Shown here: piece after piece, positions 4,424-57,659 of the stretch
Position numbering within the stretch: position 1 is the first letter of the stretch
Layout of the letters: every line of letters begins with the position of its first letter
Source: Candidatus Acidiferrales bacterium
Lineage (GTDB): Bacteria > Patescibacteriota > Microgenomatia > Levybacterales > UBA12049
Length of the DNA: 64,000 nt
Direction: 5' to 3'
Assembly: GCA_035533875.1 (NCBI GenBank)
Contig: DATLSZ010000020.1
Location: 14,146-78,145, forward strand
Translations under genes and position numbers: made by a program
The notes under the pieces: generated by a model
Told to the model about the DNA's origin: nothing
Database searches by the model: none
Seen by the model: only the letters and a program-made list of their open reading frames with translations

Positions 4424-4434
4424 AAAAGATTAAC

Positions 4435-4496
4435 GATTGAAGATTAAAGATTTAAGAATTTCTTAAATCCTAAATCTTACATCTTAAATCTAATTT
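4435..4496. repeat. Two opposed tandem heptamer arrays that form a long AT-rich hairpin
   Basis: GATTGAA GATTAAA GATTTAA GAATTTC, then CTTAAAT CCTAAAT CTTACAT CTTAAAT CTAATTT. The core GATTTAAGAA-T-TTCTTAAATC is a perfect 10-bp inverted repeat, and the arms extend to about 19 nt with 2 mismatches. Confidence 0.8.
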
Positions 4497-6421: not shown

Positions 6422-6937
6422 TTATTTTCCTTTGCCTACTTTCACTTGTGCTGCCCGTAATAATTTATCATATAATAAAAATCCAATACGCAGCTCTTCA
6501 AGAACGCTTCCGTCTTCTCCAACGTCAGTAGCTATTGCTTCCATCAGATTGGGATCAAATTTCTTCCCAACCGTCTCAATTTTTGTCACCCCTTCTGCTT
6601 TCAGTACATCGAGGAATTGCTGAATACTGACTTCTACGTTCTTGTCTTGGGTATGCTGATAGGCCAATATCAGTGTATCCAAAACAGTCAATATTCGCAA
6701 GAGCAATTCTTTATTTGCCGACCTTATCCACTCACTCTTCTCATCCTGCACTCTTTTTTGTAAATTCTGGTAATCTGCCAAAGCTCTCTTGTATTTATTC
6801 TCAGCTTCCTCAATCTGCGCTTTTACTTCCTCAAGTTCATCGATAACTTCTTCACCTTCAGTTTCTTCTAAATATTCCACTTCCATTGCGTCCGTCGCAA
6901 TGTCTTCGTTTTTCTTTTTATCGTTATCATTATTCAT
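6422..6937 (-). CDS. grpE: Nucleotide exchange factor GrpE
   Basis: 171 aa. A coiled-coil N-terminus ([14 protein letters not shown]) and a C-terminal beta domain, positioned between hrcA and dnaK. Confidence 0.9.
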
Positions 6938-6972
6938 CTTTAATCTTCAATCCTAAATCTTAAATCTCGCTT
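6938..6972. repeat. Tandem heptamer array that fills the hrcA-grpE spacer
   Basis: CTTTAAT CTTCAAT CCTAAAT CTTAAAT CTCGCTT. It runs from the base after the grpE start codon to the hrcA stop. Confidence 0.8.
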
Positions 6973-8737: not shown

Positions 8738-9715
8738 GTGAAAAAATTTCATTTTCTCTTTGCTTTTTTTCTAATTTTTATAGTAGTCACTTTTTCTACA
8801 TTATCTTTGGTGACAAAAACTGCTTATGCAAAGAGTTGTACGGCAAACGGGCATGAATGTACCGGTCAAACATATTGTAAAGATACAAAGAATGGAGGAG
8901 ATTGTTCTGCTTTTGTTGGTTTCGGAACTCCTCCAACTTGTGCCTGTGCACCAAAACAAACGACTGGCTCCTGCACGTCAGATAACCAATGTTCAACGAA
9001 CTATTGCACTAATAAAAACGGAGGAGGAGAATGCTCTAACAGCGGAGGCGCCTTGAATCCAACGTATAATTGTATCTGTGGACAAAAGCAAACAAAAGGA
9101 TCCTGTTCGACAGATGCGCAATGTTCAAACGGAACATATTGTGAAGACAATAAGGGTGGCGGATCATGTCCGCCATTTACCGGTTTTGGTACGCAACCCA
9201 GTTGCAGCTGTAAAGCAAAACAAACAAAAGGATCCTGTGCTGTAAACTCACAATGTGCTAACGGTTATTACTGTGGTGCGGCAGGTGGTGGAGAATGTCC
9301 ACCATTCACAGGCTTCAACAGTACTCAAACTATATGTGCATGTGTAAAAAACGGTACTAATTATAACTCTGCACCCACTCCGCTCCCTGGTCCCCCTTCT
9401 CCTCCGTGTCAAAATTGGAGTAATGGAGAGTGTTTGACCTTTACTTCTGCTTTTGGACCGATCGCAACCAATCCATCCGGATTTGTTAAAACAATTTTTG
9501 GTATTCTTCTTAGTATCTCCGGTGGCATTGCCCTGCTTCTTATTATTAAGGCAGGATACCAACTGATGACCTCTCAAGGCAAACCCGAGCAAATCCAGCA
9601 GGGTAGAGATCAACTGATTGCCGCTATCGTCGGGCTTATCTTCCTTATCTTCTCTTTTGTGTTCCTGCAATTAATCGGATTCGATATCCTGCATATTTAC
9701 GGATTTGGCGCATGA
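8738..9715 (+). CDS. Secreted cysteine-rich repeat protein fused to a C-terminal T4SS-pilin-like two-helix domain
   Basis: GTG start. Signal peptide ends ...TKTAYA/KSC. Four tandem ~44-aa, 6-Cys repeats (KQT[KT]GSC..[ND].QC....YC.....GG.C..F.GF......C.C). A Pro-rich linker PTPLPGPPSPPC precedes the pilin-like domain FGPIATNPSGFVKTIFGILLSISGGIALLLIIKAGYQLMTSQGKP... Confidence 0.8.
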   Translation: MKKFHFLFAFFLIFIVVTFSTLSLVTKTAYAKSCTANGHECTGQTYCKDTKNGGDCSAFVGFGTPPTCACAPKQTTGSCTSDNQCSTNYCTNKNGGGECSNSGGALNPTYNCICGQKQTKGSCSTDAQCSNGTYCEDNKGGGSCPPFTGFGTQPSCSCKAKQTKGSCAVNSQCANGYYCGAAGGGECPPFTGFNSTQTICACVKNGTNYNSAPTPLPGPPSPPCQNWSNGECLTFTSAFGPIATNPSGFVKTIFGILLSISGGIALLLIIKAGYQLMTSQGKPEQIQQGRDQLIAAIVGLIFLIFSFVFLQLIGFDILHIYGFGA

Positions 9716-9845: not shown

Positions 9846-11171
9846 GTGAAAAAATATATAGTTTTTGCCGGCTCAACACTATTCTTCATTTTCTCATTTT
9901 TATCTCAGAACATACCTGTTTCATATGCCATCCCCGTACCTATCTGTAATCCTCCTCCAGGTACAACAAGAAATACGGCTGGCCTAGGGGAAAAATGTAA
10001 CTATCATAGTATTACTTGCAATTATCAAATAGAGTGTAGTGCAGGACTTACCTGTGATACTCATCTTTATCCAGATTCCCTCTGTGTCTCTACCAAAGCA
10101 AAAGCAGTAAATTGTTCATGCAATCACCCAGGTGCTGATGCGACAAAAACACCTGGTGTAAACAGATTTACCTGTAATGGTCAGCAATTCTATTGCAGTA
10201 CGTCAAACCTCTCTTGTTATGCCAGTAATAACAATATTGTTACCGCAAGCATTGTAGATAGTAAAGAACGTAGTAATTTTAATAATCAGTTTCCTCCACA
10301 ACAATATACCGTTAAAGGTGTTATCTGTAAACCATATCAACACAAAGCAATATGCTCATGTACAACGCCAAATAAAGCCGGAGGCGGGAACAATGAATTT
10401 AAGTGCAATGATACATCCGGAAAATCAATTGGTGTTGGATCTTGCGGAAGTGTTCATGACGCATGTTCGGATACTCCTGGTGTATCTATAGATGGCAACC
10501 TTATAAATCCTAATCCTAATCCTTCAGGCAATATCGGTACAGGATGGAACGTCACGGGTATCGCCTGCCATGGTCTCGTAGCGAAGTGTACCTGTACTCA
10601 TAACAACGGTTCCGGGAGCGGACAAAATGGATTTTCGTGTACAAATCCGGATACTAGTTCAAAATTAAAAACAGGAGGCGGCTATTGTAATGGGACGCAA
10701 TACGCATGTCAAAATGCTCCAGGCTTTTCTGTTGATACATCAACAACATCGAATTATTCAGGATTTTTAGCAGCTAATGGTGGCTATAGCATCGAAGGAA
10801 TTAAATGTACAGCATCGACACCTTCTGCACCCACACCGCTTCCTCCTCCACCGTCACCTCCGTGTCAAAATTGGAGTAACGGAGAGTGCACAACCTTTAC
10901 TTCTGCTTTTGGACCGATCGCAACCAATCCATCCGGATTTGTTAAATCAATTTTTGGTATTTTACTGAGTATTTCAGGAGGAATTGCCCTGCTTCTTATT
11001 ATTAAGGCAGGATACCAACTGATGACGTCTCAAGGCAAACCCGAGCAAATCCAGCAGGGTAGAGATCAACTGATTGCCGCTATCGTCGGGCTTATCTTCC
11101 TTATCTTCTCCTTTGTGTTCCTGCAATTAATCGGATTCGATATCCTGCATATTTACGGATTTGGCGCATGA
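9846..11171 (+). CDS. Secreted cysteine-rich protein fused to a C-terminal T4SS-pilin-like domain (paralog of 8738..9715)
   Basis: 441 aa with a GTG start and the signal peptide ...NIPVSYA/IP. The different Cys-rich ectodomain carries repeated C.C(T/N).P/H.N..G..N.F.C motifs. The same PPPSPPCQNWSNGEC linker is followed by a near-identical pilin-like C-terminus. Confidence 0.8.
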   Translation: MKKYIVFAGSTLFFIFSFLSQNIPVSYAIPVPICNPPPGTTRNTAGLGEKCNYHSITCNYQIECSAGLTCDTHLYPDSLCVSTKAKAVNCSCNHPGADATKTPGVNRFTCNGQQFYCSTSNLSCYASNNNIVTASIVDSKERSNFNNQFPPQQYTVKGVICKPYQHKAICSCTTPNKAGGGNNEFKCNDTSGKSIGVGSCGSVHDACSDTPGVSIDGNLINPNPNPSGNIGTGWNVTGIACHGLVAKCTCTHNNGSGSGQNGFSCTNPDTSSKLKTGGGYCNGTQYACQNAPGFSVDTSTTSNYSGFLAANGGYSIEGIKCTASTPSAPTPLPPPPSPPCQNWSNGECTTFTSAFGPIATNPSGFVKSIFGILLSISGGIALLLIIKAGYQLMTSQGKPEQIQQGRDQLIAAIVGLIFLIFSFVFLQLIGFDILHIYGFGA

Positions 11172-11610: not shown

Positions 11611-13101
11611 ATGGCAAAATTTTATATCACAGCGGCAATTCCTTATGTCAATGCCAAACCTCATATCGGTCATGCACTCGAGTTCGTACAAACTGACGTA
11701 ATCGCCAGATACCACAAGCTGAAAGGATTTGAAACCCGTATGCTCTCAGGCGGCGATGAAAATGCGTTGAAAAATGTCCAGGCAGCCGAAAAAGAAAAAA
11801 TGCTCGTTCAAGAATTTGTGGATAAAAATACCAAACTCTTTGAAAATCTCGCTCATCAACTTAATGTACAATTTGATGTCTTTCAAAAAGGCAGCGACCA
11901 ATCACATCATTATCCGGCTTCTCAAAAATTGTGGGAGTTATGTCAAAAAAACGGTGACATTTATAAAAAGAAATACAAAGGACTTTACTGTGTCGGCTGT
12001 GAATTATTTTATACCCGTGATGAACTGGATGAAAACGGTGAATGTTATGAGCACCCTGGCAAGCCCTTGGAAGAAGTAGAGGAAGAAAATTATTTTTTTA
12101 AGCTTTCAGACTATACCGATAAAGTGCTCAAACTTATTGAATCAAATCAACTTGAAATCGTTCCTGATTTCCGACGGAACGAAGTCTTGGCGTTTGTTAA
12201 AAAAGGACTTGAAGATATCAGCATCTCACGATCAAATGAACGGGCAAAAAATTGGGGAGTGCCAGTGCCGGGAGATGACACGCAGCGGATGTATGTCTGG
12301 TTTGACGCACTCAATATTTATCAAAGTGGTATCGGATTTGGTTGGGATGAGGAATCCTACAAAAAGTGGTGGCCGGCAGATGTACACGTCATAGGAAAAG
12401 GTATTATCAGATTCCATGCTGTGTATTGGCCTGCATTTCTTATGTCCGCGGGACTTGAATTACCAAAAAAATTGTTCGTCCATGAGTACTTCACAGTTGA
12501 TGGCAAAAAAATGTCCAAAACGCTTGGCAATGTCATTGACCCAGTTGAGTTAATTAAAAAATACGGAACCGACGCTTTACGATTCTATTTCCTTAAATAT
12601 TTTTCTCCTTTCTCTGATGGTGACTTTTCAGAAGAGAAATTTAAAACTGCATATAATGCAGACCTCGCGAATGGACTGGGGAATCTTGTTGCGAGAGTGG
12701 CTAAACTATGTGAGAAGGAAGATTTTGAATTTACAATTTTTGATTACAAAAATACGAAGCCCCCAAAAGTTGAAAATAGTCTCATCTTACAAGCAATAGA
12801 AAAAGGAGAATTTAATGAAGCATTACAGATAATATGGCAATCAGATATTAAATGGGGTCATTTGTGGCTTAATGAAGACCAATCAAGAAGTATTAGAACT
12901 ACAGATCAAACAATTAATGAACAACAGCCATGGACTCTTGATAAGATCGACTTGCAAAACAAACTACACTTATATGTAGATAATATACGTGCCATCGCAT
13001 ATTTTTTGCAACCGTTTATGCCCGAGACTGCTGAAAAAATTCTTGAACAATTCAAAGGGCCGAAAATTAAGAGCTCAGCACCACTATTCCCGAGATTATG
13101 A
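11611..13101 (+). CDS. metG: Methionyl-tRNA synthetase
   Basis: FYITAAIPYVNAKPHIGHALE (HIGH-type), the KMSKTLGN (KMSKS) motif and a CxxC knuckle (YCVGCELFY). I prefer the ATG at 11611 over the TTG at 11587. Confidence 0.92.
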   Translation: MAKFYITAAIPYVNAKPHIGHALEFVQTDVIARYHKLKGFETRMLSGGDENALKNVQAAEKEKMLVQEFVDKNTKLFENLAHQLNVQFDVFQKGSDQSHHYPASQKLWELCQKNGDIYKKKYKGLYCVGCELFYTRDELDENGECYEHPGKPLEEVEEENYFFKLSDYTDKVLKLIESNQLEIVPDFRRNEVLAFVKKGLEDISISRSNERAKNWGVPVPGDDTQRMYVWFDALNIYQSGIGFGWDEESYKKWWPADVHVIGKGIIRFHAVYWPAFLMSAGLELPKKLFVHEYFTVDGKKMSKTLGNVIDPVELIKKYGTDALRFYFLKYFSPFSDGDFSEEKFKTAYNADLANGLGNLVARVAKLCEKEDFEFTIFDYKNTKPPKVENSLILQAIEKGEFNEALQIIWQSDIKWGHLWLNEDQSRSIRTTDQTINEQQPWTLDKIDLQNKLHLYVDNIRAIAYFLQPFMPETAEKILEQFKGPKIKSSAPLFPRL

Positions 13102-14027
13102 TCGATGTCCATTGCCATCTCCAGTTCAAAGCGTTTGAAGACGACTACGACGCAGTTATCAATGATGCCTTCAAAGAAGGGCTCACAATGATCATCAATA
13201 CCGGTACACAGCTTTCATCCAGTCGCAAAGCAGTAGAGTTCGCTGAGAAATATGACAAATTGTATGCAATCGTCGGTGTCCACCCCCACCATGCTGATAA
13301 AATCGAAAGCGATCCCGAGGTAGTCGAAGCTATTGAAGGGAGCTCTCCCGTCATTGCGAGCGAACGAAGAGAGCGCGGCAATCTCAAAAAGCAGGGGATT
13401 GCTTCGTCGCAAACTCCTCGCAATGACGAAAAAAATTATTGGCTATGGGAACTCGAAAAACTAACCCATCACCCCAAAGTACTTGCAATCGGTGAAATCG
13501 GCATGGATTATTATTCCTACAGATCAAACGGGATTGTCGATCCCAAGCAGCAGGAGAAAATATTCATACAGCAAATCGAACTTGCTCATGAAGTTAAACT
13601 TCCGCTGCAGATCCACAACCGGCACGCGGGAGAAGATGTTATAAAAATTCTCAAACTACACAAAAATCTCTTATTAAATAACCCCGGTATGTTTCATTGC
13701 TTTGCAGGCTCCAAACAAGTATTAAAAGACGCACTCAGCTTGGGTTTCTCCATCGGATTTGATGGCAACAGCACATATAAAGGATTGGCGCCGGGTGAAA
13801 CCGTAACACTTCCGGAACTTGCCAGTCTCACCCCGCTTGATCGGATTGTCATTGAGACTGACGCACCGTTCCTCACTCCGGTACCGCACCGAGGCAAACG
13901 TAATGAACCCAAATATGCTATACTCACTGCACGCTTCATAGCACACCTCAAGCAAATCTCATATGAAAAACTTGTGGAACACACAGACAAAAACGTCTAT
14001 ACTATGTTTGGAAGAATAAATAGTTAA
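13098..14027 (+). CDS. tatD: TatD-family metal-dependent hydrolase carrying an internal palindromic-element insertion
   Basis: MIDVHCHLQF..., GEIGMDY and ETDAPFLTP motifs. Its 309 aa is longer than I recall for the family, and the extra segment is EGSSPVIASERRERGNLKKQGIASSQTPRNDE. Confidence 0.88.
   Translation: MIDVHCHLQFKAFEDDYDAVINDAFKEGLTMIINTGTQLSSSRKAVEFAEKYDKLYAIVGVHPHHADKIESDPEVVEAIEGSSPVIASERRERGNLKKQGIASSQTPRNDEKNYWLWELEKLTHHPKVLAIGEIGMDYYSYRSNGIVDPKQQEKIFIQQIELAHEVKLPLQIHNRHAGEDVIKILKLHKNLLLNNPGMFHCFAGSKQVLKDALSLGFSIGFDGNSTYKGLAPGETVTLPELASLTPLDRIVIETDAPFLTPVPHRGKRNEPKYAILTARFIAHLKQISYEKLVEHTDKNVYTMFGRINS
13350..13427. mobile_element. 78-bp palindromic repeat element inserted in-frame in tatD
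   Basis: Terminal inverted repeats GTCATTGCGAG (13350..13360) and CTCGCAATGAC (13417..13427). Inner inverted repeats are CGAACGAAG/CTTCGTCG and GCAATC/GATTGC. The 78 bp equals 26 codons. A second copy lies at 45388..45451. Confidence 0.75.
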
Positions 14028-15551: not shown

Positions 15552-15622
15552 TCAGAAAACTCGGAGAATCAGAATATCTGACAGTCCGATTTTCAAAAAA
15601 TCTGATAATCCGAGTTTTCTGA
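15552..15622 (+). promoter_or_regulatory. Long composite hairpin in the GT2 / GT-C spacer that ends 5 nt before the next start codon
   Basis: A perfect 13-bp inverted repeat, CAGAAAACTCGGA (15553..15565) and TCCGAGTTTTCTG (15609..15621), is extended by ATCAGA (15568..15573) / TCTGAT (15601..15606). Small inner hairpins are TCAGA-ATA-TCTGA and GATTTT-CAA-AAAATC. Confidence 0.6.
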
Positions 15623-15626
15623 AAAT

Positions 15627-17180
15627 ATGAGATTTCTGGCCTGTATAGAAAAAAAGAAATTTACTTGGGTACTTATTGTGCTCTGTGTAGCATTTTTCTT
15701 TTTACGTCTTCCATCACTCATTGAACCTTACTGGTATGGTGATGAAGGGGTGTATGAAGTTATCGGTCAAGCAATGGATCAAGGTCGGCTGCTTTATCAG
15801 GATATTTGGGATAACAAACCACCACTACTGTATACTATTTATGCCATAGCGCAAGGTGACCAGCAGGTCGTCGAAACAATATCTGCTTTCTTTGGAATTC
15901 TTGCTATCATCGGTATCTTCATACTCACACAAAACCTTTTTAATAAAACACGAATCAGTATACTATCATCTCTGGTCTTTGTCCTGCTCTTGGGTACTCC
16001 GCTTCTGGAAGGAAATATTGCCAATGCCGAAGTATTCATGCTTCCCTTCACTATCTTCGCCGGCTTACTCATCTATCAACACACAACTCAAACACAAAAT
16101 AATTCAAAACAATCTTCAATCTTTAATCTTCAATCTTTAATCTTTATTGCCGGCCTTCTCCTAGGCATCGCGTTCCTTTTTAAAATTGTTGCAATTTTTG
16201 ATTTCGCTGCGTTCTTCCTGTTTCTTCTCATTAACAGACTACCTGAAAAACTGTCTTGGAAATCATTTAAAAAGGCATTTGCCAAAAAACATTTGCCTAA
16301 TGCCCTATCTGTATGGAAGCAACCGCAAACACGGATATATCAATATATCATTGTCGGTTTTTTTCTTCCATTCATTTTGACAGTCATTTATTTCTTCTTA
16401 AATCATTCTTTAGTAGATTTTCTCCAGGCTGTATTCTTGGGAAACGTCGATTATGTTGCATGGGGTAATAGCCTCTTTGGACTTTCAAATGGATTGCTGT
16501 TACTCAAAATTGTAATCCTTGTCATTGGTCTCTCTGTAATTATTTGGAAAAGAAAACAGTTTTCCAAACCCGCACTCTTTATCTGGTTATGGATTCTCTT
16601 TTCAATATTTAGCGCGTTCTTTTCGGAACGTCCCTATACCCATTATGTTATTGTTCTCTTGCCGAGCTTTTGTTTATTGTTCGGTTTGATATTTACCGAA
16701 AAAAATATAAGAAGCCGTCTCATTGCGGCCGTAGGCATAATTGCTATTTTAGTGATTACTTCATTTCAATTTCAGTTCAATGTTCCCAAATCAATAGCGT
16801 ATTATCATAATGCGATTCAATTTGTGAAAGGATCTGAAAGCGTAGAAACATATCAATCCTTTTTTGACACCAAAACTCCTCGCGACTATATGGTCGCTAC
16901 ATTTATCAATGACCACACCTCACCTTCCGAAAATGTCTTTATTTGGGGAGACAGCCCCCAGATCTACGCACTTTCACATAAATTACCTCCAGGAAAATAT
17001 ACGGTTGCCTACCACATATCGCAAAATAATGCTGTTAACCAAACACAAATAGCTATCAATCGAGCAAAACCAAAATATATAATTGCATTGTCGGAAGCTC
17101 AACCCTTGCCGTTTGATCTTCCGCTCTATATAATGCGATACAATATATCCGGAGCGACAATTTATGAAAGGAGTTTCTGA
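15627..17180 (+). CDS. GT-C fold glycosyltransferase (ArnT/PMT, family 39/83-like)
   Basis: 517 aa, polytopic. The first-loop motif is PYWYGDEGVYEVIGQAM..GRLLYQDIWDNKPPLLY. Confidence 0.7.
   Translation: MRFLACIEKKKFTWVLIVLCVAFFFLRLPSLIEPYWYGDEGVYEVIGQAMDQGRLLYQDIWDNKPPLLYTIYAIAQGDQQVVETISAFFGILAIIGIFILTQNLFNKTRISILSSLVFVLLLGTPLLEGNIANAEVFMLPFTIFAGLLIYQHTTQTQNNSKQSSIFNLQSLIFIAGLLLGIAFLFKIVAIFDFAAFFLFLLINRLPEKLSWKSFKKAFAKKHLPNALSVWKQPQTRIYQYIIVGFFLPFILTVIYFFLNHSLVDFLQAVFLGNVDYVAWGNSLFGLSNGLLLLKIVILVIGLSVIIWKRKQFSKPALFIWLWILFSIFSAFFSERPYTHYVIVLLPSFCLLFGLIFTEKNIRSRLIAAVGIIAILVITSFQFQFNVPKSIAYYHNAIQFVKGSESVETYQSFFDTKTPRDYMVATFINDHTSPSENVFIWGDSPQIYALSHKLPPGKYTVAYHISQNNAVNQTQIAINRAKPKYIIALSEAQPLPFDLPLYIMRYNISGATIYERSF
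16114..16148. repeat. Tandem heptamer array inside the GT-C coding sequence
   Basis: CTTCAAT CTTTAAT CTTCAAT CTTTAAT CTTTATT belongs to the same family as the intergenic arrays at 6938 and 55373. It is translated as SSIFNLQSLIFI. Confidence 0.8.
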
Positions 17181-29850: not shown

Positions 29851-30734
29851 CGTAATGCCTCCTCAAGAAGTGTTTTGAGATCAGTTCTTTTATCACGATA
29901 TTTAATGATAACCGGAACTTGTATCTGAATCCATTGTTCTAGTGCAAATTTATTATCATCTTTTGGACGTGTTCCGTTCACTACAATAGCTCCTTCCGGT
30001 ATTTCAAGTGGAGTAGCATCAGTCGCTTTATAGACTTTCTGTTTTATCAGATCATACACCGGCGTTGCCGATGTGATATTGACACCGGGGACAAGCAAAA
30101 CCCGTTTGCGAAGGATAACCCCTTCTGCGATGGAAGAATTAATACCCATGAGAACATCATCTTCAACAATACACGGACTCGCATTGACCGGCTCAAGGAC
30201 GCCGCCGATTTGCGCGCCGGCTGAGATATGACACCTATTACCAACCTGTGCACAGCTCCCAACTAATGAATGCGAGTCAAGCATTGTTCCTTCTCCGACA
30301 TATGCGCCGGTATTGATATATGCAGGAGGCATCATGATGACTCCTTTTCCGATAAAAGACCCATCCCTGATACTTGATCCACCAGGGACTATCCGAATAT
30401 TTTCAATTGTAAAATCAGTTGACCGTAATGGAAAAGTATCTTTATCGGCAAACTGAAGTGTCTCGGTTTTACCGGACATTCCGGTAATGACACCAAACCG
30501 CATACAGACCAAAATCCCTTCTTTCACCCAGGTATTCGTTATCCAAACACCCTTTGTATCTTTTTCGGCAGAGCGGATCGCACCGCTATTCAATGCGGAA
30601 ATAAACTGTTGTATGATGTCTCTTGCATTCACTGTTTTCCGTAATTTCGTAACGGATGAAATTTGGGCAAGCGTTATGATTTCTTTTTGTAATTGATTTT
30701 TAGACAAACTTTTTTTCATATTTATTGCTGGCAC
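29847..30734 (-). CDS. dapD: Tetrahydrodipicolinate N-acyl(succinyl)transferase
   Basis: Left-handed beta-helix hexapeptide region ...GAQIGGVLEPVNASPCIVEDDVLMGINSSIAEGV..., within the DAP gene context. Confidence 0.8.
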   Translation of the reverse strand: MPAINMKKSLSKNQLQKEIITLAQISSVTKLRKTVNARDIIQQFISALNSGAIRSAEKDTKGVWITNTWVKEGILVCMRFGVITGMSGKTETLQFADKDTFPLRSTDFTIENIRIVPGGSSIRDGSFIGKGVIMMPPAYINTGAYVGEGTMLDSHSLVGSCAQVGNRCHISAGAQIGGVLEPVNASPCIVEDDVLMGINSSIAEGVILRKRVLLVPGVNITSATPVYDLIKQKVYKATDATPLEIPEGAIVVNGTRPKDDNKFALEQWIQIQVPVIIKYRDKRTDLKTLLEEALR

Positions 30735-45004: not shown

Positions 45005-46093
45005 ATGACAATCCTGGGAATCGAAACAAGCTGTGATGAAACGGCAGTCGCTATCGTACAAGGTCATGAGGATCATGTTGAGTTAAAAACAAACGTACTA
45101 GCAACATCACTAGCCCTTCATGCCAAAACTGGTGGCATAATTCCAGAGCAGGCGGCACGGGAACAAATAAAATATATCCTCCCCACGCTAAAAAAAGCAC
45201 TTGATACCTCTGATACTTTTAATGCCTTAGAACAAATAGATGCCATCGCAGTCACGTACGGCCCAGGGCTGATAGGATCACTTCTCGTCGGTGTTGAAAC
45301 AGCAAAGACCCTGGCGTTTGTCTTGAACAAGCCTATCATCCCCGTCAATCACATGGTCGGCCACATCTATGCCAACTTTATTGCCACGTCATTGCGAGGA
45401 GGAACGACGAAGCAATCCCAAACGAGATTGCCGCACTTCGCCCGCAATGACGATATCAAATTTCCCGCACTCGCTCTCGTTGTTTCAGGCGGACATACCG
45501 ATCTTTTGTTAATAAAAAAACACGGTAACTTCGAGCTAATCGGCGGCACTCGTGATGACGCCGCAGGAGAAGCATTTGATAAAATCGGCAGAATGCTTGG
45601 ACTAGCGTATCCGGCCGGACCGGAAATTGAACGCCTTGCAAAACTCGGAGACCCCAAACGCTTCCGTTTCCCTCGCCCGCTTCTTCATGAAGATACCTAT
45701 GAATTCTCCTTTTCCGGCCTTAAAACAGCCGTTCTCAGAGAAGTTACAAATCTTAATACTCAAAACTCAGAACTAAACGCTCACACAATCAAGGATCTCG
45801 CCCGTGCCACCCAAGACGCTATCATTGAAGTACTTGTTAAAAAAACACTGAGAGCAGCCAAAGAACACAACGTCAAATCAATCCTCCTCTCAGGCGGTGT
45901 CGCAGCAAATCAAACATTGAGAGAACAATTTAAACGAGACGCTAGACGCTCTATGCTAGACGCTGAGATTTTTGCACCGCAAAAATCTCTCTGTACCGAT
46001 AACGCGGCAATGATCGCATCGGCAGCATATTTTAATTTCAACCCTGTTCCGTGGAATGAGGTAACCGCCGACCCTGAATTATATTTTGAATAA
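45005..46093 (+). CDS. tsaD: tRNA N6-adenosine threonylcarbamoyltransferase TsaD, carrying a palindromic-element insertion
   Basis: ILGIETSCDETAVAIV, VSGGHT and a C-terminal CTDNAAMIA. The extra segment ATSLRGGTTKQSQTRLPHFARNDD is encoded by the element at 45388..45451. Confidence 0.92.
   Translation: MTILGIETSCDETAVAIVQGHEDHVELKTNVLATSLALHAKTGGIIPEQAAREQIKYILPTLKKALDTSDTFNALEQIDAIAVTYGPGLIGSLLVGVETAKTLAFVLNKPIIPVNHMVGHIYANFIATSLRGGTTKQSQTRLPHFARNDDIKFPALALVVSGGHTDLLLIKKHGNFELIGGTRDDAAGEAFDKIGRMLGLAYPAGPEIERLAKLGDPKRFRFPRPLLHEDTYEFSFSGLKTAVLREVTNLNTQNSELNAHTIKDLARATQDAIIEVLVKKTLRAAKEHNVKSILLSGGVAANQTLREQFKRDARRSMLDAEIFAPQKSLCTDNAAMIASAAYFNFNPVPWNEVTADPELYFE
45388..45451. mobile_element. Second copy of the palindromic repeat element, inside tsaD
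   Basis: GTCATTGCGAGG ... CCCGCAATGAC termini with the inner GCAATC/GATTGC pair. It belongs to the same family as 13350..13427 and is read in a different frame at its 5' side. Confidence 0.75.
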
Positions 46094-46317: not shown

Positions 46318-46935
46318 ATGGGAAGACGATTGTCCTATATCTTACTCAGCTTTTTGATACTTACCGTCTTCTCAACCCACACCGTCTCCGCAGCCCAACA
46401 GCAAAATATACCAACCTTTTTCTCTTTTCTTGAAAATTATCTCCTCGCCTTTACTTCCATTACATCATATAACAACAAAGTTCTTGCTGCCCATACAGCG
46501 TCCCCAACAAACCAGCCTCCTACGCACCATTCACAACCATCTCCTCAGCTAACGCCACCACCAATCCAACAAAATGTATCTCTCTCAGATGTCTCATCGT
46601 ATATTTTGAATGGCGTCAATACGTATCGGTCATCACTCGGATTATCTCAGGTCCACGCAAGCAGCCAAACGTGTAACTTCGCCGCAACCCGCGCACTGGA
46701 AATAACAACCAGCTTCAGTCATGACGCATTTTATAGCCGGGTCAACAATCATACGATACCGTATTCATCCTGGTCACGTGCGGTTGAGAATATCGCGGAA
46801 GCACCCGATTATAAAGAGGTCGTCACGCTTTGGAAGAATTCACCCGGCCACGCCGCCAACATGCGGGACAATACACCATATGTCTGTATCATCCGAAACG
46901 GATCTTACTACGCCTATGAAGGCATGCGCCCCTAA
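46318..46935 (+). CDS. Secreted CAP/SCP (PR-1-like) domain protein
   Basis: A signal peptide and a Pro/Gln linker are followed by YRSSLGL..., AVENIAE and WKNSPGHAANM motifs. Confidence 0.7.
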   Translation: MGRRLSYILLSFLILTVFSTHTVSAAQQQNIPTFFSFLENYLLAFTSITSYNNKVLAAHTASPTNQPPTHHSQPSPQLTPPPIQQNVSLSDVSSYILNGVNTYRSSLGLSQVHASSQTCNFAATRALEITTSFSHDAFYSRVNNHTIPYSSWSRAVENIAEAPDYKEVVTLWKNSPGHAANMRDNTPYVCIIRNGSYYAYEGMRP

Positions 46936-46952
46936 ACGCTAAACGCTAAACG
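46932..46952. repeat. CTAAACG x3 tandem heptamer array
   Basis: Three perfect copies. The stop codon of the CAP gene (TAA, 46933..46935) lies inside the first unit. Confidence 0.9.
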
Positions 46953-46960
46953 CTCTCATA

Positions 46961-48731: not shown

Positions 48732-48755
48732 ACTGTTATTATACCAATCAACAAA

Positions 48756-48804
48756 CTAAACGCTAAACGCTAAACGCTAAACGCTAAACGCTAAACGCTA
48801 AACG
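48756..48804. repeat. CTAAACG x7 tandem heptamer array
   Basis: Seven perfect tandem copies (49 bp) immediately upstream of the promoter cassette. Confidence 0.95.
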
Positions 48805-48812
48805 CTCTCATA

Positions 48813-54579: not shown

Positions 54580-55371
54580 TCAGTTACTTGCGCTTGTATA
54601 ATGACGAAGCGCATATGACCAAAACCGCAGACTGATAAAAAGCAACCCAACGCCGAAAACAAGTGCGATAACAACTCCCTGCCAAGAGAGCAATCCAAGA
54701 AGCGCCCTCCCCGGATATGTCATCATAATGCCTACCGGAATCACAAAGGTAATCAGCCCACGCAATGGTTCTTGATAAACTTCAATCGGCAATCTACCCA
54801 TCTGAGTAAGATCACGGTAAAGCATAACGGTATTATCAACTGCAGTTGATAATATACCGGTTCCAAGGACAAAAATATGAAACCCAAGAGAAATAATAAA
54901 TCCGTTCATGAGTAACAAAATGTATAAAAGAACACGCAAAACTGTCACATGATCGCTGTGCCATCCCGCAAAAATGATAAAACCGGCCGAAAGAATAAGA
55001 ACAAAAAGATCCAGCATATCGCTTCCGCCAAATAGTGGGTGAAAAAGCGACGGGAGCGGTTTGAGAAGCAGGTTATCAAAATAGCCATTCAAAATCTGCT
55101 GACGGAAACGGTAGACATTGCGGAAAAAGAATTGCGGCAGTGTATCAAGAAAATTAAATGTCGCGTAAAAGAGCACGATTTCCCAGAAGGTATATCCCGC
55201 TATTACTTTGGCTCTGTTCACCAAAAGCACAAGAAACAGCAGAAAAAATACATACCGGAGTAATTTCCCCAATAAAAATAACACCGCGCCAAAACGCGAC
55301 TGAAACGCTATCTGTGTTGTCCCGAGAGTCAACTTCCACCAAATAATTAAATATCTATTTAATCTCTTCAT
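54580..55371 (-). CDS. ABC-2-type transporter permease (uncharacterised ABC system, ABC2_membrane_6-like)
   Basis: 263 aa with 6 predicted TM helices. It is the last gene of the ATPase-permease-permease triad. Confidence 0.7.
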   Translation of the reverse strand: MKRLNRYLIIWWKLTLGTTQIAFQSRFGAVLFLLGKLLRYVFFLLFLVLLVNRAKVIAGYTFWEIVLFYATFNFLDTLPQFFFRNVYRFRQQILNGYFDNLLLKPLPSLFHPLFGGSDMLDLFVLILSAGFIIFAGWHSDHVTVLRVLLYILLLMNGFIISLGFHIFVLGTGILSTAVDNTVMLYRDLTQMGRLPIEVYQEPLRGLITFVIPVGIMMTYPGRALLGLLSWQGVVIALVFGVGLLFISLRFWSYALRHYTSASN

Positions 55372-55372
55372 T

Positions 55373-55414
55373 TTTTAATCTTTAATCTTCAATCCTTAAT
55401 CTTCAATCTAATGT
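55373..55414. repeat. Tandem heptamer array that fills the spacer between the two permease genes
   Basis: TTTTAAT CTTTAAT CTTCAAT CCTTAAT CTTCAAT CTAATGT. The spacer is 42 nt, which is 6 x 7. Confidence 0.85.
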
Positions 55415-56241: not shown

Positions 56242-56265
56242 TGGTTAAATTTGTAAAAGTAAAAA

Positions 56266-56300
56266 CTAGACGCTCGACGCTAAACGCTAGATGCTTGATT
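56266..56300. repeat. Degenerate CTNNACG heptamer array that overlaps the 3' end of the ABC ATPase gene
   Basis: CTAGACG CTCGACG CTAAACG CTAGATG CTTGATT. The last units encode the C-terminal ...NQASSV and the stop codon. Confidence 0.8.
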
Positions 56301-57267: not shown

Positions 57268-57302
57268 AAGTGACAAGTGAATAGTAACTAGTGATTAGGA
57301 CT
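57268..57302. repeat. Tandem heptamer array (AAGTGAN/TAGTRAN family)
   Basis: AAGTGAC AAGTGAA TAGTAAC TAGTGAT TAGGACT. It overlaps the stop and last codons of the 57288..57659 gene. Confidence 0.8.
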
Positions 57303-57659
57303 TTTATCTAATTTTGACGTTAACGTATTTAGCATACGAATGACTTCGTTAAGTAGTCCGCCAACTGTCTGATAGTCTTCAGCACTTGCGAAATCCAATT
57401 CTTGGGCAATAACAATCTGTGTTTCAAGTTCGAGAGCTGAAGCATATGCGATTAATAAACCACGTCTATATTCCTTACGCAATTTTCTCCCAAACCCTTC
57501 AGCAATATTTGACGGAATGGAAATTGCCGCTCGTCTCATTTGTGCAACTAAACCATATAACTCAGCTCTCGGAAATTTGTACGTTAAAAGGAAAATATCC
57601 TTTACAAGAAGAATAGACTTTTGCCAAACAATAAGATCTTTATATGAATGAATCTGCAT
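57288..57659 (-). CDS. Four-helix-bundle protein (23S rRNA intervening-sequence protein family)
   Basis: 123 aa. YKDLIVWQKS...LVAQMRRAAISIPSNIAEGFGR is the family hallmark. Confidence 0.8.
   Translation of the reverse strand: MQIHSYKDLIVWQKSILLVKDIFLLTYKFPRAELYGLVAQMRRAAISIPSNIAEGFGRKLRKEYRRGLLIAYASALELETQIVIAQELDFASAEDYQTVGGLLNEVIRMLNTLTSKLDKSPNH

Follow-up and report, generated by a model that had tools for sequence, protein, structure and literature searches.

The stretch of DNA analyzed here, 64,000 nucleotides of contig DATLSZ010000020.1 (the window), raises the question of how tatD, a gene for a TatD-family hydrolase, comes to hold a 78-bp palindrome within an open coding sequence, and whether such a segment is a part of the protein or a piece of repeat DNA. 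An earlier note on this DNA had described a 26-codon element lying in-frame in tatD at 13350-13427 and a second copy in tsaD, the gene for the tRNA t6A37 threonylcarbamoyltransferase. The tatD element is confirmed to the base, with the open reading frame (ORF) intact, and the second copy is found in tsaD at 45388-45451 with a length of 64 nt. We consider it likely that the segment is a DNA repeat that forms a hairpin, is non-autonomous, and belongs to the CGTC-tagged REP (repetitive extragenic palindrome) or REPIN-like (REP doublet forming hairpin) kind, embedded in-frame and tolerated. The features referred to below are the following, with positions counted along the window.

13098-14027, forward strand: coding sequence of tatD (TatD-family hydrolase, 309 aa; ORF and Pfam PF01026), host of the element.
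13350-13427, no strand assigned: palindromic element, 78 nt (80 nt including the CGTC/GACG tags at 13349 and 13428), TatD residues 85-110.
13350-13360, forward strand: left terminal inverted repeat, GTCATTGCGAG.
13377-13403, forward strand: inner stem-loop, GGCAATCTC, loop, GGGATTGCT, with the family core GCAATC / GATTGC.
13417-13427, forward strand: right terminal inverted repeat, CTCGCAATGAC.
45005-46093, forward strand: coding sequence of tsaD (tRNA t6A37 threonylcarbamoyltransferase, 362 aa; PF00814), second host.
45388-45451, no strand assigned: second element copy, 64 nt (66 nt, or 22 codons, with the tag positions 45387 and 45452), approximately TsaD residues 128-149 (TSLRGGTTKQSQTRLPHFARND).
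Example of a peptide crossing an insert junction: GNLKKQGIASSQTPR.

The 309-aa tatD ORF matches PF01026 in a Pfam scan with E = 7e-75 over profile positions 1-253 of 253. Read in order, the element consists of GTCATTGCGAG CGAACGAAGAGAGCGC GGCAATCTC AAAAAGCAG GGGATTGCT TCGTCGCAAACTC CTCGCAATGAC. Its termini are complementary at 11 of 11 nucleotides, the outer stem reaches 12 bp once C13349 and G13428 are counted, and nested within it 13377-13385 pairs with 13395-13403 to form a 9-bp stem; the terminal and inner inverted repeats that had been described are thus both present. Folded as RNA, the element has an energy of -36.4 kcal/mol (z = -4.0), and none of 200 shuffled sequences was as stable. 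The frame stays open through all 26 codons, and the peptide that they add, VIASERRERGNLKKQGIASSQTPRND, is the one previously given. The catalytic or invariant residues H5, H7, E133, H173, H200, and D255 of TatD are retained. In an AlphaFold2 model of the protein the mean predicted local distance difference test score (pLDDT) is 87.8 and drops to about 50 only over residues 81-110, and the core of the model superposes on solved TatD structures with a target-normalized TM-score of 0.91. A TatD carrying the insert is also present in the database at 99% identity.

The tsaD ORF matches PF00814 (E = 1e-83, Pfam scan) in two stretches that are parted at the insert. Here the terminal repeat matches at 10 of 11 positions, and the RNA fold of -28.3 kcal/mol corresponds to a z of -5.2. 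Residues H116, H120, and G162-G163-H164 are kept, and the AlphaFold model has a mean pLDDT of 88.2, with residues 130-147 and the three C-terminal residues alone falling below 50. As the models are confident everywhere but at the inserts, these are predicted to be floppy loops on intact folds; the mapping on structural models proposed in the earlier note accordingly places both inserts in low-pLDDT loops and leaves the cores confident. Five contigs, each from a different ENA or JGI sample, carry a TsaD of identical protein sequence together with the identical 64-nt insert, which excludes an assembly artifact. The two hosts had also been called essential genes. In general TsaD is essential, whereas model bacteria can do without TatD-family nucleases, so that the description holds for tsaD and is an overstatement for the pair.

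The terminal 11-mer, with at most one mismatch, occurs five times in the window against 0.97 occurrences expected, and the tatD and tsaD copies are the only pairs of arms lying 30-130 nt apart with at most two mismatches per arm in the 64 kb, which makes chance an improbable source of the two elements. A third candidate terminus at 30178 (one mismatch) has no partner arm, lies inside a hexapeptide-transferase gene, and was set aside as a chance match. The G+C content is 54% and 56% in the elements, 44% and 46% in their host genes, and 41.7% in the window. An nhmmer profile of 124 copies run with --max detected no further degenerate copies in the window, where the copy number is two, both intragenic. 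Related loci gathered around tatD and tsaD, about 740 kb in all, contain full copies in those two genes only, and two partial copies lie elsewhere (L285:5863-5907 and L293:9-62). The copy number in this lineage therefore looks low, unlike a genome invasion of the kind seen for Rickettsia palindromic elements (RPEs). Rfam returned nothing at the element, whether the window was searched at gathering thresholds or positions 13250-13530 at E values up to 10, and the sole gathering-threshold match in the window is one tRNA. No transposase domain was found in the 42 window ORFs searched against Pfam or in the precomputed annotation of the region.

To place the element in a wider context, one genome per species was scanned for the pattern GTCATTGCGAG, 32-62 nt, CTCGCAATGAC. 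The pattern matches at least 120 genome loci in more than ten phyla, in agreement with the earlier view that the element belongs to a widespread family of hairpin repeats. Among the matches listed are Bradyrhizobium, Sphingomonadales, Rhodospirillales, Gamma- and Deltaproteobacteria, Pedobacter, Mucilaginibacter, Flavobacterium, and Bacteroidales, along with Chloroflexota, Microcoleus (Cyanobacteria), Pirellulales (Planctomycetota), Margulisbacteria, Coxiellaceae, and Berkelbacteria of the candidate phyla radiation (CPR). Copies with exact termini also occur in Rickettsiales metagenome-assembled genomes (MAGs; L062, L076, and L079), a Tisiphia symbiont being among the Rickettsiales listed. The same pattern is present on 113 IMG/VR viral contigs (L133-L245), some of which carry two or three copies (for example L162, L170, L182, and L202), and phages or prophage regions could ferry the element between hosts.

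The members of the family share the plan [C]GTCATTGCGAG, variable side module, GAAGCAATCC(A), loop, (T)GGATTGCTTC, second side module, CTCGCAATGAC[G], in which a side module measures 6-16 nt and is often a mini-hairpin. Because the collection scans demanded exact termini, the conservation of the termini across phyla is partly by construction, and the interior core alone provides independent evidence. This GCAATC/GATTGC core, in an interior that the scan left unconstrained, could be recognized in 108 of 124 genome copies, and among the viral copies 120-122 of 134 have it. When the genome copies of other phyla alone were made into an nhmmer profile, this recovered the tatD copy with E = 1e-12 and the tsaD copy with E = 2e-9, and nothing else in the window. 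The flanks of the genome copies carry C at -1 in 86/124, G at +1 in 96/124, and Y/R (pyrimidine/purine) at -2/+2, such that the palindrome reaches one or two bases past the 11-mers and reads CGTC...GACG. No direct target-site duplication was seen at the flanks of the 124 genome copies, which are inverted complements of each other (YC...GR). In 0.9 Mb of loci, termini were paired in 133 cases and unpaired in 19; as they are nearly always paired, the mobile unit is apparently the whole hairpin of approximately 64-84 nt. The family elsewhere is mainly extragenic, given that only 21 of the 124 genome copies lie within a frame that is open for at least 60 codons on both sides. Any one of the six frames is stop-free in about half of the copies, which makes survival in-frame easy.

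Comparison with homologues, as the earlier note had proposed, identifies both segments as insertions: solved homologues break there, and many orthologues are without them. The G+C content of the elements, 10 percentage points above that of their host genes, points the same way. When TatD is aligned with solved TatD chains using phmmer, the alignment ends at query residue 78 and restarts at residue 117, in both cases at chain residue 77, and alignments to solved TsaD structures end at query residue 127 and restart at 145. Among 120 TatD homologues, relatives of 265-270 aa are without any loop at the insert position. Most members of the close TatD clade have a loop of about 22 aa there (PEVVE.TEG....KKEP..V..DYW), including those in which the repeat is unrecognizable, and a recognizable element occupies the same site in seven of the homologues (P0003, P0004, P0005, P0012, P0016, P0052, and P0072) and, more loosely, in P0092. 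The shortest relatives among 120 TsaD homologues (333-340 aa) read IYANWIEH-QDITFP, with no insert, and the family is found at the same TsaD loop in P0127, P0138, P0155, P0210, P0221, and P0227.

Other repeat-like peptides were seen at the same two loops, both of which appear to be repeat hotspots in relatives. Distant TatD proteins have GVILSERSESKNL (P0115) and GHPEHSKGPPSLIENSWDSSASPQND (P0101) in the TatD loop, and this position may therefore take other repeat families. In relatives P0122-P0240 the TsaD loop (approximately 45380-45460 in the window) contains LVPSPQSLIP, KLDARRYALDA, SAISHKPSANI, CHPGE...LQND, or VISRSNATRDPEEISHSVRND; judged from these peptides only, the loop seems to act as a hotspot at which several different families of hairpin or 7-mer repeats occur. 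A separate observation concerns positions 45932-45971 of the same gene (TsaD residues ~310-322, RDARRSMLDAE), which have 70-77% identity to intergenic CTAGACG/CTAAACG 7-mer repeats. In homologues the matching stretch is of fixed length and alternates among motifs such as DARRYTLDAK, LTSHLSLQ, LSSQFSVK, and TINDQKLTAK, and it may be another repeat-derived segment.

The history of the tatD site was examined at the DNA level in six TatD orthologues in conserved synteny (methionyl-tRNA synthetase, TatD, and a 497-aa membrane protein). Five of the six have the element at the same site and in the same frame (GTC ATT GCG AGx ... CCT CGC AAT GAC), with lengths of 72, 78, 78, 84, and 105 nt and differing interiors. 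Over the terminal 4+4 codons the third positions are alike at 7-8 of 8 in the ten pairs without L126, and at 6 of 8 for L126, whose copy is decayed; elsewhere in tatD only 40-58% of synonymous third positions are identical. Eight related copies have the core unchanged, even though the frames in which it is read differ, as GGC AAT CTC in the window, AAG CAA TCC in L127, and GAA GCA ATC in L130, and yields GNL in the window and KQS or EAI in relatives. That the terminal third positions remain alike in a host gene near saturation, and that the core is kept across frames, show that what is conserved is the DNA repeat and not the peptide.

The same comparisons contain signs of both inheritance and turnover. 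In tatD the window and L126 have the same unusual left module, CGAAGAGAGCGCGGCAAT, and in tsaD 26 central nucleotides are identical between the window and L246; one sample is the source of both L126 and L246, and the host identity to them is about 75-79%. These shared inner variants are evidence for vertical inheritance. The element-bearing TatD proteins, on the other hand, are scattered in a tree of the rest of the protein, each beside element-free sisters, and the TsaD relatives display two entry frames on the basis of protein sequence, ...NTSLRG... versus ...TVIARSKSDEAI..., with P0221 in the other frame. The scattered carriers and the two entry frames are evidence for turnover or several events. 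Many of the seemingly empty TatD loops hold PRND, PRNV, PQNV, PKNV, or TIASE...PVD fragments, and P0037 holds the 3' half only (SPSTPRND). Such putative remnants match the leftover expected from internal deletion of a palindrome. The TatD host identities are nearly equal (0.79-0.82), and the single-protein neighbor-joining tree is star-like.

The anatomy of the element, its family membership, its in-frame state, its loop location, and its conservation at the DNA level are established. In the explanation that we favor, a copy of the repeat would have lodged in the part of tatD that codes for a surface loop, and a second copy likewise in tsaD. The genes remain open because the insert brings no stop codon into the reading frame and its net length is divisible by three, and the repeat would be translated into 22-26 additional, probably disordered residues tolerated by the enzymes, with the added peptide as a by-product. 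The two loops would serve as permissive landing sites in which family members have been present for long and have arrived more than once. Copies would be inherited vertically between insertion events, in line with both insert variants being common to the window and a relative at about 78% identity, and most lineages would then have lost the palindrome through internal deletion, leaving short remnants behind. From the hairpin anatomy and the lack of target duplication we infer mobilization in trans by an enzyme acting on single-stranded hairpin DNA (HUH/Y1-like; compare RAYT and IS200/IS605), which would leave no target-site duplication.

Several points weigh against this explanation. With few copies, active transposition of the family in this lineage is not demonstrated, and so small a number is not easily squared with repeated insertion at one and the same codon. 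The six TatD copies all lie in one orientation, with the long side module on the right, which favors common descent, and a single old insertion whose arms selection or gene conversion has preserved would be compatible as well. The mobilization step is pure inference, and no transposase was found in the window. The half-units are also without the 8-9-bp stem and 4-5-nt loop that define published CGTC monomers. A more far-reaching version, in which the element is no passive relic but a pan-bacterial hairpin repeat that homes repeatedly to the same tatD and tsaD loop sites, or is actively homogenized there, in small Patescibacteria-like genomes, its arms staying intact as DNA within coding sequence, strikes us as improbable. 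If true, it would imply broadly conserved mobilization or maintenance machinery for CGTC-type repeats, and the recurrently occupied sites would be a natural assay for that machinery.

The hairpin might instead be retained for a function as nucleic acid, as a single old insertion under selection rather than a mere passenger, with slowing of translation, tuning of mRNA stability, or a DNA site for gyrase, integration host factor (IHF), or a similar protein as candidate roles. Indeed, synonymous positions in the terminal and inner arms are conserved although those of the host gene are close to saturation, and the arms are conserved across reading frames; the element has one position and one orientation in all TatD copies, the folds are strong (z = -4 and -5), and REPs have generally been proposed as RNA or DNA elements. 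Yet most orthologues lost the palindrome or never had it and retain no more than a short loop that drifts, the termini of the orthologous L126 copy are mismatched, the inner modules vary freely between 72 and 105 nt of total length, and no Rfam family matches. We therefore regard retention for such a function as unlikely. An ordinary lineage-specific protein loop, kept by selection on the protein and resembling a repeat by chance, would account for the approximately 22 aa that the whole clade has at this place in TatD, also in members without a recognizable repeat. It does not account for a nucleotide match to copies from unrelated phyla at E = 1e-12, a perfect 12-bp palindrome, the same nucleotides conserved in different reading frames, or the same element in the unrelated protein TsaD, and the cross-phylum profile match together with the cross-frame conservation effectively refutes it.

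Removal of the segment before the mature protein is formed, by intron-like excision from the mRNA or intein-like splicing, would be in keeping with a stable, self-contained hairpin and would produce a shorter loop. We consider this very unlikely, as there is no match to an Rfam intron or ribozyme at E values up to 10, 26 aa is far below the size of an intein and there are no intein termini, and the copies always keep the frame and avoid stops, which is expected only if they are translated. The RPEs of Rickettsia, moreover, are reported by Ogata et al. (Science 2000) to be kept in transcripts, a point on which a review that cites that paper is silent. Finally, the conflict between the NCBI label of the MAG, Acidobacteriota, and its closest relatives, which are Levybacteria-like, makes the binning questionable and could point to a chimeric join through the repeat. 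Such an artifact of assembly or binning is scarcely credible for the insert itself, considering the identical TsaD and insert on five contigs from five ENA and JGI samples, the conserved synteny around tatD in six relatives, and the intact reading frames.

The label of the host deserves comment in its own right. The NCBI proteins HVA96523.1 and HVA96552.1 are labeled Candidatus Acidoferrales (Acidobacteriota). The named closest relatives of TatD and TsaD have inconsistent labels, namely Levybacteria/Levyibacteriota (three), Saccharimonadales, and the acidobacterial Sulfotelmatobacter. In its gene content the window looks Patescibacteria-like, with type IV secretion system (T4SS) pilins, a 23S rRNA intervening-sequence (IVS) protein, a class I lysyl-tRNA synthetase (LysRS) fused to a B3_4 domain, and 41.7% G+C, and the contig may be mis-binned.

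The window contains other repeats. Two intergenic families of 7-nt tandem repeats, of AATCTTN type and CTAAACG type, lie at 4425-4491, 6930-6967, 16102-16145, and 55370-55409, and also at 46915-46954, 48739-48806, and 56256-56295. The AATCTTN-type repeat forms a hairpin with 32-nt arms at 4427-4491, and the two families look like further classes, a second and a third, of repeats of hairpin or terminator-like type in this genome. An imperfect palindrome at 15552-15622, with 35-nt arms that are 80% complementary and 1 nt apart, lies between the gene for the 497-aa membrane protein and the next gene. The adjacent genes at 8738-9715 and 9846-11171, each with a C-terminal T4SS-pilin domain, have in common a 300-nt repeat of 93% identity (9368-9667 and 10824-11123), and the first of them also contains three 74-nt Cys-rich modules at a spacing of 132 nt (8938-9275). 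The gene for the 23S rRNA IVS protein (57288-57659; PF05635, E = 7e-35) is isolated, no rRNA gene of the window being close by.

The findings add a Levybacteria-like lineage and two new host genes to the in-frame coding palindromes known in Rickettsia and other Proteobacteria; the host lineage and the target genes tatD and tsaD are what is new here. A single hairpin family with the same 11-nt termini and inner core spans more than ten phyla and occurs on viral contigs as well. Two protein loops are apparently recurrent landing pads, and features of the repeat DNA outlast the saturation of synonymous sites in the host gene. This offers a way into two old questions, by what means CGTC-type REPs move, no transposase being known for them, and with what frequency new protein loops are seeded by selfish hairpins. 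For annotation, it means that peptides such as VIASEAKQS..., SLRGG.TKQS..., and ...ARND inside conserved enzymes should be taken as derived from a repeat and not as functional motifs.

The closest known system is that of the CGTC-tagged REPs (Di Nocera, De Gregorio, Rocco 2013, BMC Genomics 14:522; PMC3733652). These are short palindromes with an outer CGTC tag, of which TGTC and CCTC variants are allowed, a stem of 8-9 bp that opens with two A-T pairs, a loop of 4-5 nt, and a 3-nt CCA-like tail. They occur mostly as head-to-head dimers able to fold as one long hairpin, in five phyla but mostly in Alphaproteobacteria, are mostly extragenic, and have no associated transposase (PMC3733652). Copies are found in-frame in housekeeping genes of many bacteria, where dimers code for 20-30 aa, and the RPE-4 and RPE-6 families of Rickettsia are themselves CGTC-tagged REPs (PMC3733652). 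As in-frame REP and RPE insertions were thus cataloged in 2013, the phenomenon itself is not new. The present family resembles this group in that both window copies read C|GTC...GAC|G, ATTGCGAG pairs with CTCGCAAT directly after the tag in a stem that opens with two A-T pairs, and the whole forms a long hairpin like that of a head-to-head dimer, with the 133 paired and 19 unpaired termini given above. It is likewise distributed over many phyla, mostly extragenic, with occasional in-frame copies coding for 20-30 aa. As to a transposase, none is known, on a search of the 64 kb of the window. The family differs in the pairing within a half-unit, which is only 5 bp (ATTGC/GCAAT) instead of an 8-9-bp stem, the 8-bp complement of ATTGCGAG lying on the other arm, 50-60 nt away. 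Among the repeats of PMC3733652 is a Bradyrhizobium CGTC-1 type with unusual loops. With regard to the 3-nt tail, the consensus of the family has a CCA-type sequence behind the inner arm; GCAATCCA is present in 68/124 of the copies from other phyla, and the window copies have GCAATCTC and GCAATCCC. The peptides VIASEAKQS..., ...ARND, and SLRGG.TKQS are missing from the table of intragenic copies in PMC3733652, the family motif is not in the supplements of that paper, and the hosts found here (Patescibacteria-like, Chloroflexota, Cyanobacteria, and others) exceed the five phyla reported.

The earlier note had described the behavior of the element as RPE-like. The likeness holds in that RPEs (Ogata et al. 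2000, 2002) are also palindromic, lie in-frame in housekeeping genes, and occupy surface loops compatible with the fold. It does not extend to the peptides, since those listed for RPE-4 and RPE-6 are VIPAKAGI, SFPRKRES, or VIPWLDHGI and those found here are of the form VIAS.../...RND, or, it seems, to abundance, RPEs being numerous per genome whereas two copies are present here in 64 kb, in a host that is not Rickettsia. REPINs, which are mobilized by RAYT (TnpA-REP) transposases, also combine two inverted REP-like arms in one long hairpin without target-site duplication, and a single-stranded hairpin substrate is plausible for both. REPINs, however, have a GTAG tag and a flanked single-copy RAYT gene, whereas the elements studied here have CGTC, with no Y1/HUH transposase gene in the window, and REPIN families are lineage-specific whereas this family has the same 11-nt termini across phyla.

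[quoted passage not shown] Unlike them, the present family shows no target-site duplication, and no insertion sequence with matching terminal repeats is known as its parent. In-frame fusions of the RPE type are regarded as established, and are expected elsewhere, in a 2024 review of prokaryotic MITEs (PMC10969869). In the literature we found no account of such inserts in Patescibacteria, and the terminal 10- or 11-mer appeared there only in unrelated primer sequences. Judged by its sequence, the element lies outside the RPE families with the listed peptides and fits the broader group of CGTC-tagged REPs.

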